From Monosiga brevicollis MX1 (Eukaryota), in NCBI RefSeq assembly GCF_000002865.3, contig NW_001865061.1, positions 100,597-164,596 of the forward strand: a stretch of DNA of 64,000 nucleotides. Direction: 5' to 3'. Each line of letters begins with the position of its first letter. Within the stretch, counting starts at the first letter, position 1. Made by a program: the position numbers and the translations under genes. Of the stretch, positions 2,175 to 42,460 are shown piece by piece. Under the pieces are notes generated by a model, which ran no database searches, was not told where the DNA came from, and was given only the letters and a program-made list of their open reading frames with translations.

Positions 2175-2179
<5 letters not shown>

Positions 2180-2237
<58 letters not shown>
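2180..2237. repeat. (GA)n microsatellite just upstream of the LRWD1 ATG
   Basis: Pure GA dinucleotide run seen directly, about 40 bp before ATG 2280. Confidence 0.95.
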
Positions 2238-2279: not shown

Positions 2280-5200
2280 ATGGCCGAGGCCGCGGAAGCG
2301 GCGTCGCCAGTGGGTGAAGCAGCAGGCAGTGAGCATGACGAGCCCGTGGCAAGGCCTGCTCGGCGCAAGGCAATCGATCTGAGCGCCTTTCACCCTGGCC
2401 AGCCGGCATCAGAGGTGACCCAGCTCAAGTAGGTGGCGGTTGCTTGTCAGGTCTCGTTGCCCCGGAACTTGCGCCTGTTCTTCTCGATCCTAGCCGCGCC
2501 TGGACTCAAGCATTGCATTGGGCCTGCTAGGGTGACGAGCCTCAAGGCCAAGCAGCTCGAGGCCCTGGACTTGGCGGCCTACACCAAGCTCACCGACTTG
2601 GATCTTAGCGGTTGTCAGCTGAAGGTGGGTCACGTTTCTCGATGCACCTGTGGTTGGATCCCTTTTTATTGGTTGCAGGCATCGCAGCCGCGATTTTTCA
2701 CAAAAGTTCCCCCGGTTGTCCCTCTAGTCGCTTGAGCTGGCAGCCCTACCAAAGCTAACGCACCTGGACGTTTCGGACAACGATTTGCAATGGCTCAAAG
2801 GCCTTGTTTCTCTCCCAGCCTTAAAAAGCATTCACTACACTGGCAATCCTCGCATCCCGGTGCGTTAGCAGCCATATTATGCCCTTTGCAGCGGTATCAT
2901 GACTTGCAAGCTCACCATACAGTGTTGTCCTTCGCTTTGGCCGCTACACTTGTCCAGGCGTTCTTCCCATTCTATCTGGCTTCTAGGCTGCCGGCTTTGC
3001 GGACGATCAACAACAACGTGAGAGCAATGATTCACGTCTGCACCTGTAGTTCTTTAACCTTTTCTCCATGCGCACTGTGACCTATCCCGTCTCACCGTTT
3101 TGAAGCCCACATCCATGCTGTTTCTTGTTCGCTCCTAATCCACCCCACCGTGGTACTGCTGGCATGCACGCACAGCCCCTCGGGACCACCCGCAGCATGG
3201 CCGAGCGCGTCGCGCGCGATGTTGACCGTCAAGTTGAGCAAGCCTATCAGAAACTCGGACTTCAAGAGTCGTCGGAGCACCAGGACCCAGAGGTATGTCT
3301 GCTTTTTGGAAGTAATGCCCCTGTCTCGTCGCATCTCACGTCTGTGTCATGGCATGGCTTTAGGCCGTGCGTGCTGCGCTGCGCAAACACTTCGCGGCCA
3401 AACTAAACCCCACTGATAATATGAAGGCGGGCTATGAACGACACATGTTATCACGCCTCATTGATCGCATGCCTGGAGGTCAGCCTGTATGCCACTCCCA
3501 ACGTGTCTGCCATTTTGCAAGGCTCTTGCCTCGCTTGCTCCTACTGACCATGACCGCGCTCCAACTCGTCCTACCCAGCTCTTGAAACCATTTTGTCACG
3601 TGCACACGGTCGAGCTCGCGCCTCAGCTGCCAAAACCGCAGCCACCGAAGATGGGAGCCCAGCAGCCAAACGCAGCGCCACTGGTGCCGGCAGCGCTGGA
3701 CAAAAGTCGACGTCACGAGGTGCAGGTCGTCCACGCAAGCCTCTGCCAGTGGATGAGAATGGCAACCCAATACCCAAGCGGGGCGTGGGTCGTCCTCGAA
3801 AGCCGCCGCCGGTGGACGAACATGGGAATCCCATTCCAAAGCGCAAAGTGGGCCGGCCTCGCAAACCGCCACCAGTGGATGAGAACGGGAATCCCATCCC
3901 AAAGCGCAAAGTGGGTCGCCCACGCAAGCCACCGCCAGTTGATGAGCATGGCAATCCAATTCCAAAGCGTCGGGTCGGGCGACCTCGCAAGCAGCCTGAA
4001 CTCGACGAGCAGGGCAATCCTATACCCCCGCGCCGTGCTGCACGCCGGTCAACGTCCAAAGCTGAGAGTGCACCAACCACTGACGGTGAGGCAGCCTCGG
4101 GCACGACGACAGAAAACACTTTGGCTGAGCCGAATGGCGCCAAGGCTCCAACCAAGCGACGTAGTAGAGCCGCAAAGACTGCCGTTGACGGTGATGCTGC
4201 GCCGAGTTTGGCACCGCCACCCCCGACTGAGCCTCAGATTCTAGACATGGCCGGGCCAGTCTCGCGCATTCCCATGCCAGATGCAGCCGCAGAGCCAGTT
4301 CCCGTCGTCCCACTCGATCCCGTTACCGGCTTGCAGTTGCAACGCGCGTTTCGCATGGTAAGAAGGTGCCAGCGCAGCCAGGATTTGCGATGAGCAAGTA
4401 TTTCCTCGTGGCTTTAGCCCTGCTCGACAATCGTTGCCTGCGTTTGCTCACGTTGTCCTCCCACTCAATCATGCCTACGACTACGCCAGCATCACGAAGA
4501 CGATGCCAGTGTGCTCGCAGCCAAGCATGCGTGGGGTGTGGCTTGTGCGCCTCCCGAAGATCCTCGCTGTACGTTGATTATTATTTTTTATTTGTTTTGT
4601 TTGGGTGCTCAATCGTGGTGCCAAAGCCTAGTCTCCCCTAGCATTGCTTCCTCTGGGTTTGTACCAGGTGCCACACTGATGAGATGGCTTGATTGCATGT
4701 TGCTGGGTTGCGTACTTGCTGGTTGTGTAGATCGCACCGTGGCCGCCTCGGTTGGTGGCAGTTTTGTTTGCCTGGTCGATATGATAGCGCAGCGCGTTGT
4801 ACAGCGATATCACTTCCCCAACGAGGTTGGCCATGTATCCATCTCGGGGCTTTCCATCTCCGGCAAGGGCGCATCCTTGTTTGCTAACGCTCACAACCCC
4901 GACAATATCTTGGGGTTACTCTGCGCTTAGGACTTTTACTGTTGTGCATGGAGCTACATTCCAGAGCTGCAAAGCAGCATTTTAATTGCGGGTGGTTCGT
5001 GCCCGAGTCCTGGCGCGTATTTGGGTGCAATCTTTTCAGTATGATGCAGTTGACTCTTTCATGCCTTCCATTGCGCTCGTAGGTCTGCAAGGTGTGCTTC
5101 ACATAATATCTCCGGATAAGAATGAATGCTACGAAATGCTCGGCACGACCGCGGAACCCATTCACACGGTGGTTGTCCACCCTCGCAGCCCTCGCCACTG

Positions 5201-6375
5201 CATCAGTGAGTCCTCTTGCAACCGAGGAACCCGCGTCATGGCAGCAATTAGCGTAGGCCCACAGCATGTCCAAGTCATTTTCATCACTTTGGGGTCGTAG
5301 GTGCGGCGGAAGATGGTGACGTCACGCTGTGGGGACTGCCGATGCCGGACGAGCCGTACGACCTTCAAGCCTGGTATGCTCAAGTTTTACTTCCCTGCGC
5401 ACGCTTCAACACGTTCCTTGTGTCAGCGCTGCCCCGTCTACTGCTTCAAGTCGGGTCGAGCCATTGACCTTGCGCTGATTGGACCGTTCGTTCCATCAAT
5501 AGGACTCATGATTTGGATAAGGAGTGTCATTCGGTGGCTGTGTCGCCGGACGGCGAGCTCCTCGTTGCTGCACTTCACAGCGGTGACATGCAATGCTATA
5601 AACTGGATATCGCAAAGCCGGCCTCCTTCTTGAAGCTTGCGTGCACAATCCCGCCGCCGCCCGTCGAGGCCGTTGACACAGTGGCCTTTTTGTCCAAGCG
5701 TATCCTGGGTGCGTTGCTCGCATATCTTGCAGTCTCACATCACCTGTGTTGAACAACTTGCGGGCGTTGTCGATGATAATTATACGAGTGAGGAGGCCAT
5801 GCCAGGGGGAAGAGCATCGCTGGCTCATTGTCATTGTCATCTAACGTGCTCTTGTTTCCAACATATCATTGCTGCGCGAGCAGTTACGCGCGTGCCTGGC
5901 TCGGCAAGAATGAGCCTATTCAAGATATCCGACGACGCATCGGCTACTGAGCCGTGCGGGGACATTGACGTTGTTCCACTTCCGCAGTATTTTGTTCGCT
6001 TTTCTGTCATTCCAACCAATCAAGGTTTGTAGATGCTTATTGAGGCGTCTGGAATTGTATTGCTCTCGCATGTTCGAGGCAAGCTTGCTCTTGACCTCAC
6101 CGTGGGTTTGTGTGGTCATGCATTTTTGCTTGGGTCGACGCGTACGGGTAGCCGGTGTGGTGCAAGTCATGGTCCCAGGTCCTCGAGGAATGGTCCAGAT
6201 TGGCACCGTCTCTGGGCTCGATACGAGCTCACCGTCGGCGACAACGCAGCACGTGCTGGTGCACGAACAGCTAGGCGCAACCATCTTACCACGACAAATG
6301 GCAGTTTCATCGGCCGCTAAGCGCCTGGTAGCTGCTTGTGAAGCCAACTACGTCGCAGTCAGCGAGCTAAACTAA
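2280..6375 (+). CDS. LRWD1: LRR + WD40 protein, ORCA/LRWD1 homolog, with an internal AT-hook-like repeat array (multi-exon)
   Basis: N-terminal LRRs: LTDLDLSGCQLK, LTHLDVSDNDLQ, LKSIHYTGNP, LPALRTINN. C-terminal WD40 exons HHEDDASVLAAKHAWGVACAP, RTVAASVGGSFVCLVDMIAQRVVQRYHFPNEDFY and IALVGLQGVLHIISPDKNECYEML follow the order and pattern of LRWD1 (QLWACAF, TVATCGGEAVCVIDC, LAAAGLRGLVRLL). Stop TAA at 6375. Confidence 0.75.
3716..4030 (+). repeat. Coding tandem repeat: 5 x 60 bp (20 aa) units, R-x-(A/V)-GRPRK-x-x-x-(V/L)DE-x-GNPIP(K), AT-hook-like
   Basis: Seen in ORF 3593..4393. Units differ mostly at third codon positions while the peptide is conserved. Confidence 0.9.
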
Positions 6376-6690: not shown

Positions 6691-9600
6691 TCAATTCAAA
6701 AAGCCTTTGCAGTTTTCTGCGCCACAATAGCAGGGAATTTTCTCGTCCTCCATGGGGAACTGATAGTCGTAAGTGATTTCCTGGCCCTCGCGAATATCGC
6801 GTTTGCTGTAGATAACAATGTGCTTCTCCTGCCCAATAGTTACTGTCTGCGCCCAGGCGTTGGGCTAAGTAGCACACAGCAGGATAATACGTCGTGAGAC
6901 TCAAAAACCTTTGGATGAAACGGGGTGTTCGGAATTGAGCGCGGTAAACCAACATCGCAGCTGTGATTCATGAAGCGGGCAATGTGCCCGCGTCGTGTGG
7001 CATCAATAACGTTGAGCTCGTCAATGCGGAAAAGGTACGAACTAAAAGCGCCCCCACAACATCATCAAAGACAATCAAAGACAAAGAAAGCAGCAAAATC
7101 GAAGCGAGGGCATGGTCTGGGGGTTTTCGGGTTGCAAGAGGTGTGGAGAAACAAAGGACGGGCTGGTTGACAGCAGGTGCGCACCTGCCAATTTTGACTT
7201 GAGTATAACGTCGCTCGCGCTCGTCGGCCACCGACTGGCGAATCACCTCGCCCACATATTCAATGACAACCTCATTGGCCGGGATATCCTGACGCCATGA
7301 TGGGAGCAAGGAAGAGCAAGGTATAAAAACGACCAAAATGCAGGTTGTGAGACATGCTCGAGGGCAGAACAAGGCAAAGACGATTGCCTTGAGGGGGGCG
7401 CATTCACCGAATCAACCAACCTCCATCGCAAAGAGACCCCATGCATGGATTGTCGATCGACCAAATGCAAGCTTCTTGCTGCGTGTCTGCGGATATGGAT
7501 GCGGTGACAAAAAAAAAAACAAAACAAAAAAAAAGAAAAAAACAAAAAACAAAAAAAAAAAAAAAAAAAGTCAAGGGATGGTGCAATAGCTCGGCGCATC
7601 TGCGATCAAAGGCAATACCTTGAGTTGCTGAATTAGGCCCACTTCCGCAGCCAAATTCATGTTTCCGGTCGAGGCCAGGGCGCTCGTCACGTGACGAGCC
7701 TGCCGCCGATTGTCACGCGTGGCGGTGCGGGCAACCTTTTGCACCTGTTGACGGCCTGCAGCGGGTCACGGTTTGTGAGGATGAGCGGCGAGGAAACGGT
7801 CATGGGGCGGATGTATGGGTAACAAGCAATGGACAGAAAAGAAGAGGCAGAGGAACAGGGCGAGCCTACCGGTAGCCACATTGGCACGCTTGGTTTCGGC
7901 TGAAACAAAGTAGTAGCCTTCGGCACGGGCGCATCCAGTAGCATGGGGGATGACCTTGGGGACTTGGGGCGGTTCTGAGAGTTCGTTCGGCTCGGCAGTT
8001 GGCTTGTGCTCGACAGAAGTCGCGATGAGCTGCGACTCAGCGTCAAGACTAGCAAGTTCGGCACGCAAAGCGCGCAGCAAGGCTGGAAGATATTGCGTGG
8101 CATACGCAGGAGCATGGTCCTTGGCCTTGCGATCGGTTTGCGCGAAGAGTGCTGCAATCACAAATTCCACGTCCTCGGCTGTTGCCGAGGCCAACCACGT
8201 TTCAATTTCCTGCTGGGCCTGCGCCAAAGCCTCTGGTTGATCCAGGGAAACGGGGGTACGCAACGGCTCGTCCAAGGCTTTGTCCAACGCTTCTTGGGCG
8301 GCTGCTTCGGCTTCTCGAGCGGCTTTGTCAGCTTCTGATTCAAGTTCAGCCTCTTGGGCGCGACGCGCGGCATCAGCGCGGCGTTGCGTTAGCCGTGCCA
8401 GCTGCTCAGATGCGTCTTCGTTGTCTGGCATGCTGTCTGCATCGCCATCATTATCATCCTCATCCACGTCCATGTCCTGCTCGTCCTCTGAACTGGATGA
8501 AATGTAGTCCCGGCGCTGCGGGGCGTCCTCATCCTCCGATGACTCATCGTCGGACTTGTCCGAAGACACAAGACCTGACGTAGGTGATAAGGCACATGAT
8601 CAGCACCAGGTGCGGAAAAGCAAGGTGGTCGCTAAACATGGGTGAAGATGCGGGAGCAAAAGGGGGTGGGAGGGTGGCGTGTGCCAGAACGTACGACGGC
8701 GGGGCGGCGATGGGTTTGGATGGTAGCCCGCGGGCAAGAGTCCAACAGAGTGGAGATCTTTTTGCTCCACGCTGCGTGCAGCTTCATCGGCTTGTTCTTG
8801 ACGTTGGCGCTTGCTTTCGCGACGATGGCGGCTCCAATCGACATGCATGGCAATCAAGTCGTCAATTTTTGGCTCAACCACCTGCGGGGAGTAGCGAAGC
8901 AAAAAAAAAAAAAAAAGAAAAGAAAACAGACCAAGGCAAAACATCATCCATGAGTGAATTGTGCAGTCACAATGAGAAGGTGGGCGAGCACAAGAGGCTG
9001 GGAGGAAACGAGAGGGGTTTACCTCGCGGTGCAGTGTGCGAGTAACAGCACGCAAGACGTTGCTAAAGAGTGTCTTGCGGACTTTGGCAAGGAGGTGGCG
9101 TCGAAATGAAGCGGCACGCGCTTCAGCCACGGCTCGAGGGTTGACTGGGGGGGACGCCGGGCGGGCAACTGCGGTATCACCCAAAAAGGCAAGGGCAGGA
9201 GATCGATGCTGTGTGTAGGCCGCCTCGGCAAGTGCTGCACTGGCAAAATGCACAACAGCGCTGGGCGGATCGCCGTGCAGAGTCACACGCAGTGGCTGCC
9301 AAGCACGAAACGCGGCAAGCAGGAGTGCTTCTTGGCAGGCGTGTGGCGCCAGCTCGGTCAAGCGCAGACAGGTGTGGCGAGGCTCAAAGCGAGCCGGGGC
9401 GACAACAGGAGGGGCGGAGCTNNNNNNNNNNNNNNNNNNNNNNNNNNNNNNNNNNNNNNNNNNNNNNNNNNNNNNNNNNNNNNNNNNNNNNNNNNNNNNN
9501 NNNNNNNNNNNNNNNNNNNNNNNNNNNNNNNNNNNNNNNNNNNNNNNNNNNNNNNNNNCCCGCTCCTTGTGATGGACGCGTGTCAGGACTTGGAGGGCGC

Positions 9601-11231: not shown

Positions 11232-11885
11232 NNNNNNNNNNNNNNNNNNNNNNNNNNNNNNNNNNNNNNNNNNNNNNNNNNNNNNNNNNNNNNNNNNNNN
11301 NNNNNNNNNNNNNNNNNNNNNNNNNNNNNNNNNNNNNNNNNNNNNNNNNNNNNNNNNNNNNNNNNNNNNNNNNNNNNNNNNNNNNNNNNNNNNNNNNNNN
11401 NNNNNNNNNNNNNNNNNNNNNNNNNNNNNNNNNNNNNNNNNNNNNNNNNNNNNNNNNNNNNNNNNNNNNNNNNNNNNNNNNNNNNNNNNNNNNNNNNNNN
11501 NNNNNNNNNNNNNNNNNNNNNNNNNNNNNNNNNNNNNNNNNNNNNNNNNNNNNNNNNNNNNNNNNNNNNNNNNNNNNNNNNNNNNNNNNNNNNNNNNNNN
11601 NNNNNNNNNNNNNNNNNNNNNNNNNNNNNNNNNNNNNNNNNNNNNNNNNNNNNNNNNNNNNNNNNNNNNNNNNNNNNNNNNNNNNNNNNNNNNNNNNNNN
11701 NNNNNNNNNNNNNNNNNNNNNNNNNNNNNNNNNNNNNNNNNNNNNNNNNNNNNNNNNNNNNNNNNNNNNNNNNNNNNNNNNNNNNNNNNNNNNNNNNNNN
11801 NNNNNNNNNNNNNNNNNNNNNNNNNNNNNNNNNNNNNNNNNNNNNNNNNNNNNNNNNNNNNNNNNNNNNNNNNNNNNNNNNNNNN
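11232..11885. other. Assembly gap (N run)
   Basis: N characters. Confidence 1.
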
Positions 11886-37064: not shown

Positions 37065-38479
37065 ATGATGGGGCAGGGTGGGCTGCGCGCTTTGGCGGCG
37101 GTGGTGGCGGTGGTGGGCTTTGGACTGGGGTCTTGTGCAACGGCAAGCAATGCGCTCAACTTGACGCTGCTCACGGACGGGGTTGATGAGCTTGGCGCTC
37201 GCTGTTTGGATGGCTCGCCAGGTGAGCATCCGCCCTTGATGCGATGGCTCATGCATGGCTGCCCTGGTGATTGATGAGCCTGGTCCAGTCTGAGGTGGGG
37301 GAGGTGTTTTGATCTGCTGAGTCGCTCACCTTGGCCTGCTCCCTCAGGTGGATACTATTGGCGGGCGGGATCGGCGGCCAACGCGACGAAATTTCTGCTC
37401 GTGTTCAACGGGGGCGGCTGGTGCTACAGCTTGGAAGACTGTGCGGCTCGGGCCAAGACCAACTTGGGCACCAGCACCCTTTTCGAGACCACGATTCAAG
37501 GAGACGGCATTACCAAGAATGATCCCGGCTTCAATCCGGATTTTTCATCGTGGAACGTGGCCTATCTCTACTATTGCGATGGCACGTCCTATGGCGGCAA
37601 TCACTCCGAGCCCGTGCAGGTGGGGGACCAGACGCTCTTCTTCCGCGGCCTGCGCATTCTTGAAGCCTTTCTCGATCATTTGCAACGGCATCGCGGGCTG
37701 GACAGCGCCACTGAAGTGTTTTTGAGCGGTCACAGCGCCGGAGGCTTGGGCACGTACATGCATGCCGACTACGTGGGATCGCGTGTACCCGCGGGAGCAC
37801 TTTTTGGCGCCATCCCCGATGCGGGTTTCTTCATGATGAACAACACGGTCGGGGGCCGCGACCTGTACCCGGCCCAGATCCAAAACATTTCGCGGCTTGC
37901 CAGCGTCGTGGGAGACGCTGATTGCATGGCGGCCAACGCTGCCGAAGCCTGGCGATGCATGGCCACACAGCACGCGCTCCCGTTTGTTTCCACGCGCCTT
38001 CACATGATTCAGTCAAGCTACGACTCCTGGCAGCTTTCAAACATCTTTGATGTCAGCTGCACCCCCAAGTACAGCAACAACACGTGCTCTGCCAACCAGA
38101 TGGATCAATTCCAGGTCGGTCCCGAGCCCCACCCAAGGCCCTCACCTTTTTTTTTTTTTTTTTGCTTCTGTTCACGGCCTGTGCCGGCTTGTCTCATAAT
38201 GCCCCCGGCCACCACCTGTAGGCCGTGCACACCACCATCTTGGGACAGATTCGTGCGACCAATAGCACCCGTCATGCGGTGTGGAGTGATTCCTGCATTG
38301 CTCACAGTCAGGCGTATTATGGCGACTACTTTAACAACCCGAGTTGGCAGGTGGGTGGGCGAACGCTACAGGCCAGCATTGGTGACTTTTACCGCGCCCT
38401 CAAGGCCGGTACCACCGATCTCAGCCACCTGCAACGCATTGATGTGGCTGAGTGGCCAGCCAACAAGGCATGTGCCTGA
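37065..38479 (+). CDS. Secreted pectin-acetylesterase/Notum family hydrolase (3 exons)
   Basis: Signal peptide; GARCLDGSP/GGYY, FNGGGWC, NPDFSSWNVAYLYYCDG, GHSAGG (nucleophile), SSYDSWQL, SCIAH. Confidence 0.92.
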
Positions 38480-38724
38480 TCCATCGAACTCAGCCTCCTC
38501 CGACTGTGCCAATGGCGCGTCAACTTCTTCCTTTCCCCTCCATCACTGAGACATACGCGCTGTGGTGGAGATGAACATTGGCCGGCCAGCACGGGAAACA
38601 ACTGCACGATAGGAGGTTTCCCCTCAGCCCTCTCCCAACTTTGTCTGCCCGTGCCTATTCTTTCCATTGACGTGTCCCGCATCAAAATTACAATGTTACA
38701 TAACCCCAGAACTTCAAACTCTCA

Positions 38725-42188: not shown

Positions 42189-42460
<272 letters not shown>

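Follow-up and report, generated by a model that had tools for sequence, protein, structure and literature searches.

We analysed a 64,000-nucleotide (nt) stretch of Monosiga brevicollis MX1 (assembly GCF_000002865.3, contig NW_001865061.1, positions 100,597-164,596 of the forward strand), called the window below, with all positions counted from its first letter. Window positions 2280-6375 hold a 15-exon gene on the + strand, which was modelled from open frames and GT..AG sites and then compared with aligned public contigs. Its predicted product carries leucine-rich repeats (LRRs), a basic linker with five tandem AT-hook-like units and a probable WD40-type propeller. An earlier note on this DNA, made from the letters alone, had read the gene as a homolog of LRWD1/ORCA, a protein that binds the origin recognition complex (ORC), with an inserted AT-hook-like array. 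The exons, with the encoded amino acids (aa) where assigned, and the array are as follows.

2280..2428, + strand: exon 1, beginning with the ATG at 2280, aa 1-50; joint from 2428 to 2531
2531..2624, + strand: exon 2, first predicted leucine-rich repeat, aa 50-81
2728..2859, + strand: exon 3, two predicted leucine-rich repeats, aa 82-125
2958..3017, + strand: exon 4, aa 126-145; contig joints, no Pfam match
3176..3292, + strand: exon 5, aa 146-184; contig joints, no Pfam match
3364..3478, + strand: exon 6, aa 185-223; contig joints
3579..4357, + strand: exon 7, the 779-nt linker exon that holds the repeat array, aa 223-482
3716..4030, + strand: five-unit array of tandem 63-nt units, aa 269-373
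4490..4568, + strand: exon 8, aa 483-509; contig joints
4731..4825, + strand: exon 9, start of the WD40-aligning region
4931..4994, + strand: exon 10, predicted propeller; contig joints and phmmer coverage
5083..5205, + strand: exon 11, predicted propeller; contig joints and phmmer coverage
5301..5373, + strand: exon 12, predicted propeller; contig joints and phmmer coverage
5503..5708, + strand: exon 13, clearest predicted WD40 blade
5884..6024, + strand: exon 14, predicted propeller; contig joints and phmmer coverage, no PDB match
6152..6375, + strand: exon 15, with the stop codon at 6373-6375

The gene is transcribed and spliced. Exons 1-15 were joined through 14 GT..AG introns in one contig each of two public runs (X3 and X4), and the joints of these contigs coincided with those predicted beforehand from frames and splice sites in 14 of 14 cases. 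Each spliced contig spans 2245 to at least 6582, and contigs of two other runs (X1 and X8) contain the same DNA unspliced. The exact removal of 14 introns from one molecule marks the spliced contigs as processed mRNA; the repeat exon and the exons for the LRRs and WD40 thus belong to one transcript, in which the repeat exon stands between the other two groups, as the earlier note had proposed. The coding sequence of 2451 nt encodes 816 aa, with its sole stop at the end, and the ATG at 2280 is the first in-frame ATG past an in-frame stop at 2247-2249. Intron 8 (4569-4730) is 162 nt long, a multiple of three, and contains no in-frame stop, so that the frame is open from 4418 to 4927; its retention would insert 54 residues in frame, and no retained form was present in the spliced contigs. 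Immediately ahead of the aligned start of the transcript, in promoter or 5' untranslated sequence, is a long (GA)n microsatellite at 2178-2236 (+ strand); the aligner passed over repeats at 2167-2244, 2245 being the first aligned position of the spliced contigs.

Leucine-rich repeats are predicted at the N terminus with Pfam support: exon 3 matched LRR_4 with 29.3 bits (cutoff 27; E = 9.7e-7), and exon 2 gave 16.6 bits for LRR_6, below the cutoff, together with a weak LRR_1 signal. The linker that follows (aa 224-470) has an isoelectric point (pI) of 11.0 and consists of 18% proline. The single-sequence AlphaFold2 model of exon 7 had no global fold, with a mean predicted local distance difference test score (pLDDT) of 60 and a predicted template modelling score of 0.15. 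The C-terminal 346 aa are acidic (pI 5.4) and probably form a WD40-type beta-propeller. The propeller is divided over 8 exons of 21-73 aa, and searches were run exon by exon. When exon 13 was compared with the PDB by phmmer, it matched the WD40 protein PkwA (E = 3.5e-9) and WDR61 (E = 0.012). In addition, it retrieved 4022 library proteins at E <= 1e-3 from 1.84 billion representatives; the best 150 of these 4022 each had at least two matched stretches (mostly 4-13) and lengths of 442-2376 aa, as is typical of generic WD40 proteins. A local phmmer comparison of the spliced model with the same best 150 covered aa 515-729. Furthermore, an Atlas language-model feature search with exon 15 returned only beta-propeller families among its best matches, with weak values that stay below the recognition level of the tool (score 0.93, recognition 1820). 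Taken together, these results show a layout of LRRs, basic linker and probable propeller.

The array consists of five units at 3716-3778, 3779-3841, 3842-3904, 3905-3967 and 3968-4030, arranged head to tail and in frame. The number and position of the units are those given in the earlier note, which had assigned them 20 aa each; a unit measures 21 aa (63 nt). The units start with RGAGRPRK, RGVGRPRK, RKVGRPRK (twice) and RRVGRPRK and follow the pattern (K/R)x(A/V)GRPRK and then (P/Q)(L/P)(P/E)(V/L)DE(N/H/Q)GNPIP. Tandem Repeats Finder reported a period of 63 with 3.9 copies, 78% matches, no indels and a score of 280. GRPRK starts at 3725, 3788, 3851, 3914 and 3977, and in every unit the distance from GRP to D is 9, with the next GRP 12 further on. 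A six-frame scan of the window found 13 stop-free GRP[RK] sites, of which the five in the array are the only ones that read GRPRK.

Any two copies differ at 12-23 of 63 bases. In the comparison of all 10 pairs of units, the proportion of differences at synonymous sites (pS) was 0.50-0.85 and that at nonsynonymous sites (pN) 0.02-0.25, with a pooled pN/pS of 0.17; by codon position, 5/21 first, 6/21 second and 20/21 third positions vary. GRPRK and DExGNPIP are each present in 5/5 units, and synonymous sites are near saturation. The mostly synonymous divergence between copies means that the duplications are old, that the copies have not been homogenised and that the peptide is strongly constrained. 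It also rules out the array as recent slippage or low-complexity noise, in agreement with the earlier proposal of selection on the peptide rather than slippage. These results demonstrate purifying selection on the unit peptide.

In the published description, an AT-hook has GRP at its core and basic residues on either side of it, frequently together with neighbouring prolines (PMC4615771, PMC11354804). All five units agree with this description, reading (K/R)x(A/V)GRPRK(P/Q)P, and the caveat raised in the earlier note, that the core is (A/V)GRP and not RGRP, was borne out in every one of them. No site in the whole protein matched K(K/R)x(K/R), the classical import consensus; despite this, the basic cores may serve nuclear import.

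The part between the hooks is conserved in its own right. The earlier note had described each hook as followed by a DExGNPIP spacer, and both elements are indeed present in 5/5 units. Since the spacer is a conserved motif that recurs in unrelated proteins, describing the unit as a hook with a neutral spacer attached is too simple. With exon 7, a 'longer' search retrieved 15 unrelated repeat proteins that share the unit grammar and a 'near' search retrieved 1 match; neither contained the window's own protein or any LRR or WD40 protein. In four of the retrieved proteins (P0001, P0002, P0003 and P0006), which we judge from their composition to be fungal-looking, GRP is followed by DxxGNx(I/L/V) at +9 or +10 and by the next GRP 11-14 residues later. 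A D at +9/+10 was found at 2/5, 3/4, 4/8 and 3/8 of their GRP sites, respectively. P0001 ends in C2H2 zinc fingers, and LRR or WD40 domains were found in none of the four. Bacterial LytR_cpsA_psr proteins (P0008, P0012 and P0013) carry 5-7 copies of a 17-aa unit with RYDENGNPIP and a basic patch, without GRP. A metagenome scan with exon 7 gave 7 loci, and the three inspected are bacterial-type repeat proteins:

L001, 2935-5364: metagenome repeat locus
L002, 693-1484: metagenome repeat locus
L005, 4498-7719: metagenome repeat locus

The metagenome contigs contained acidic repeats such as WEYVDENGNPV, as well as ALDEHGNPIP in a small membrane protein; an exact 40-mer scan of the metagenomes gave 0 matches. 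Tandem copies of (Y/V/L)D(E/A)xGN(P/L/V)(I/V) are thus found in unrelated proteins, both fungal-looking and bacterial ones, some of which have a basic or GRP part beside the motif while others lack it, and no Pfam family claims the motif. The Pfam family SSSPR-51 (PF18877) scored 31.9 bits (cutoff 27) on the isolated array, over VDENGNPIPKRKVGR, and 25.9 on the whole of exon 7. We judged this kinship a short-motif coincidence, as the match covers only 15/48 profile positions and the family comprises bacterial (streptococcal) surface repeats. The form (Y/V/L)DxxGNx(I/L) appears to resemble the YD-repeat core; the RHS-type repeat family gave no Pfam match at E <= 10. Four motif strings were searched in the accessible literature, with no occurrence found. 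In the AlphaFold2 model of exon 7, pLDDT was ~63-81 in the array and ~39-52 in its flanks, and in 5/5 units a beta-bridge was predicted that links the V/L preceding D with the P following GN; such a model, built from a single repetitive sequence, counts for little as evidence. The recurring pairing of hook and turn in unrelated proteins points to a candidate repeat module that would be undescribed, and we judge this module a more unexpected lead than the hook array on an LRR-WD40 adaptor.

LRWD1 is named for, and described with, an LRR region, a long linker and a C-terminal WD40 domain (PMC3520825, PMC13068663). From this shared architecture we infer that the Monosiga gene encodes an LRWD1-like chromatin adaptor, and kinship to LRWD1 appears fairly likely. 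As the earlier note had said, the WD40 domain of LRWD1/ORCA is reported to bind ORC (Orc2) and trimethyl-lysine histone marks (PMC6211026, PMC6130214, PMC13068663). LRWD1 is listed as vertebrate in a review table (PMC13068663), and its orthologs elsewhere were an open question in a 2012 review (PMC3520825). A literature search on LRWD1 phylogeny found no paper on LRWD1 distribution among the texts accessible to it. Likewise, no paper linking LRWD1 to AT-hooks was found: seven papers contain both terms, and in the accessible text of two of these seven, PMC13068663 and PMC3520825, the terms stand unconnected. In the 2024 review of ~100 AT-hook proteins (PMC11354804), the term 'WD40' is absent from the accessible text, and this review was also not among the papers on LRWD1 and 'AT-hook'. 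Exon-level searches found no close relative of the protein in protein databases. With exon 15, the 'longer' search gave 0 of 115 candidates at E <= 1; the library search with exon 13 gave generic WD40 proteins only among the best 150 of 4022. PDB searches with exons 10, 11 and 14 and the exon 8-9 frame contained no EED or LRWD1, exons 10 and 14 matching nothing. A single exon 11 match to the PDB (E = 0.75) was rejected as chance; the exon 8-9 frame matched peroxidases on the intron-coded part only. Some local motifs of the propeller appear to resemble the EED/LRWD1 subgroup.

We favour the reading that the gene encodes a three-part LRWD1-like adaptor whose AT-hook-like array binds nucleic acid, and we place its probability at roughly 0.5. 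The 816-aa protein would combine an N-terminal LRR block, a long, very basic, proline-rich linker with the array and a C-terminal WD40-type propeller. Each unit couples a (K/R)x(V/A)GRPRK core to a conserved PPxDExGNPIP stretch, predicted to form a turn that may set how far apart successive hooks lie or how they are presented. The array would most likely serve multivalent, low-specificity nucleic-acid binding, by which the propeller, together with its partners, could be kept at chromatin. The pI of 11.6 of the array, against that of the acidic propeller, was counted in favour of this reading. If the protein is an LRWD1 ortholog, the partners might be ORC and methylated histones; this, and a function of the protein as an ORC tether, are speculation. 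CBX proteins, which pair a histone-methyl reader with AT-hooks, are a described precedent (PMC13068663), and the addition of such an array to an LRR-WD40 adaptor is plausible as a variant of the hook arrays known elsewhere.

Several results weigh against this reading. The earlier note had proposed scoring the repeats with the Pfam AT_hook model; PF02178 (cutoff 17.4 bits) matched neither the array nor exon 7, at E <= 1 or even at E <= 10. An arginine before GRP was found in 0/5 units, its place being taken by A in the first unit and by V in the other four; according to the legend of figure 2 in PMC11354804, that arginine forms part of the PRGRP core observed in the groove. The DExGNPIP part has no known DNA-binding role and also occurs in acidic bacterial repeats without a basic core. 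Exon-level searches reached no LRWD1 or EED sequence, with the low power of exons of 21-73 aa, and Pfam WD40 gave 13.8 bits on exon 13 against a cutoff of 27 when single exons were scanned. In addition, X3 and X4 belong to one study, and that they are RNA runs is only a guess. The failure to match Pfam AT_hook does not settle the matter, because AT_hook was called in database arrays with similar valine-before-GRP cores: Pfam called the family in 6 of 11 scanned database proteins, with 22.8-42.5 bits, and several of these carry KRKVGRPRK-type cores, also without R before G. The earlier term 'AT-hook-like' thus stands for the GRP-core definition and fails for the Pfam family; the array is AT-hook-like by motif, not by the Pfam model.

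The protein may not be an LRWD1 ortholog at all, being instead another LRR-WD40 scaffold, or an EED-like propeller with a gained LRR head, with another chromatin or non-chromatin role. Consistent with this, no sequence search connected it to LRWD1, its propeller matches were generic, and the same layout was found in 0 of the 15 + 1 exon 7 matches. However, an LRR block, a long disordered linker and a C-terminal propeller, in this order, define LRWD1 (PMC3520825, PMC13068663), and the negatives come from single exons with the low power given above; we consider this alternative rather unlikely. The array, for its part, may not mainly read DNA: the PPxDExGNPIP turn would then be a structural or protein-binding motif, with the basic residues used for nuclear import or polyanion contact. 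The invariance of DExGNPIP at near-saturated synonymous sites argues for this, as do its repeats without GRP in the tails of P0008, P0012 and P0013 and in WEYVDENGNPV and ALDEHGNPIP, and the beta-bridge predicted by AlphaFold2 in all five units (pLDDT ~63-81 vs ~40 in the flanks). However, the GRPRK core is equally invariant (5/5), no classical import consensus is present, and the structural prediction carries little weight as the single-sequence model of a repeat. Moreover, the GRP-to-D spacing recurs in P0001, P0002, P0003 and P0006, and this fixed spacing in four unrelated proteins suggests that both halves work together. On balance, a primary role other than DNA binding seems unlikely to us.

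A further alternative, the full reading of the earlier note, is that the protein acts as the organism's own ORC adaptor and that its hook array steers ORC to AT-rich DNA for the selection of origins or heterochromatin, convergently with S. pombe Orc4. The LRR - linker - WD40 architecture and the AT-hook-like units fit such a role, and so does published work: Orc4, EBNA1 and HMGA1 are reported to recruit ORC via AT-hooks (PMC11354804), as the earlier note had stated, and the ORCA WD40 domain is reported to bind Orc2 and chromatin (PMC6211026). Short AT-rich islands do exist in the 56% GC window: in 9 of them the AT content reaches 65% or more per 100 bp, and the window has 71 tracts of A or T that are 8 bp or longer, vs 51 in shuffles. 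However, these tracts are short and ordinary intergenic ones, and LRWD1 is tabulated as vertebrate, with orthologs elsewhere left open in 2012 (PMC13068663, PMC3520825). We regard this alternative as improbable. Equally improbable is a bolder proposal that joins the two halves of the unit. Here the 21-aa unit would be a composite nucleic-acid-binding module in which a PPxDxxGNPIP beta-turn stands nine residues after a GRP hook, and it would have entered an LRWD1-like replication and heterochromatin adaptor and fungal zinc-finger-type proteins on separate occasions. The turn alone would be an older repeat, also present in bacterial tails, and with the module the ORC-adaptor layout would gain a built-in means of addressing AT-rich DNA. 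We offer this proposal as a long shot.

Elsewhere in the window, a SET-domain gene lies at 6691-7411 on the - strand, tail to tail with the LRR-WD40 gene, and its last exon matched Pfam SET with 29.7 bits. The X4 contig (a 5686-nt record) continues beyond 6700, and the 3' ends of the two genes may overlap. A Pfam scan of 16 large frames in the window found no family in 12 of them. Three long open frames gave these matches:

37278-38549, + strand: long open frame, Pfam PAE/NOTUM-like, 203 bits
59537-61066, + strand: long open frame, Pfam Peptidase_S28, 70.5 bits
18972-20981, - strand: long open frame, weak match to Pfam Phosphonate-bd, 28.8 bits

Runs of N occupy 9422-9558, 11232-11885, 17459-17802 and 42364-42413, 1185 bases together. 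An apparent 39% GC island at 10-12 kb was rejected as an artefact of the run at 11232-11885.

It has long been asked how ORC and the factors of heterochromatin are directed to their sites when no DNA consensus guides them. In fission yeast the answer is the AT-hooks on Orc4, and an LRWD1-type adaptor with a hook array, if true, would mean that the problem was solved a second time, independently. LRWD1-like proteins would then also exist beyond the vertebrates, the group in which reviews still list LRWD1. AT-hooks have often been added to chromatin proteins, which tempers the significance of one more such array. At present we describe a well-documented gene together with a hypothesis, comprising predicted DNA binding and putative orthology, and not a discovery.

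Compared with known systems, the protein resembles vertebrate LRWD1/ORCA in its N-terminal LRRs, long low-complexity linker and probable C-terminal WD40 propeller, and its size is of the same order. The likeness here is one of architecture only, and the Monosiga linker differs in carrying the five AT-hook-like units. HMGA1 and other multi-AT-hook proteins share with the array a GRP flanked by K/R and P, several copies and a disordered basic region, whereas the HMGA core is RGRP and the Monosiga core is (A/V)GRP, below Pfam AT_hook. In the extended AT-hook of Tip5/BAZ2A, a GRP core is likewise accompanied by basic patches at a distance, and that hook is reported to bind RNA (PMC4615771, PMC11354804); in Monosiga, by contrast, basic residues directly adjoin GRP, and the patch after them is already part of the following unit. 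CBX2/4/6/7/8 likewise pair a reader of histone methylation with AT-hooks that lie in a disordered stretch, for multivalent chromatin binding (PMC13068663). Their reader is a chromodomain, while here it would be a WD40 domain for which methyl-lysine reading is assumed. P0001, P0002, P0003 and P0006 share GRP, D at +9/+10 and DxxGNx(I/L/V) with the array and are unrelated in the rest of the protein. As in S. pombe Orc4, where tandem GRP-core hooks on a replication-initiation factor find AT-rich DNA (PMC11354804), the Monosiga hooks are arranged in tandem. In Orc4 they are on a subunit of ORC itself, whereas in Monosiga they are on a putative adaptor, no arginine precedes GRP in the cores, and a DExGNPIP turn stands between one core and the next.

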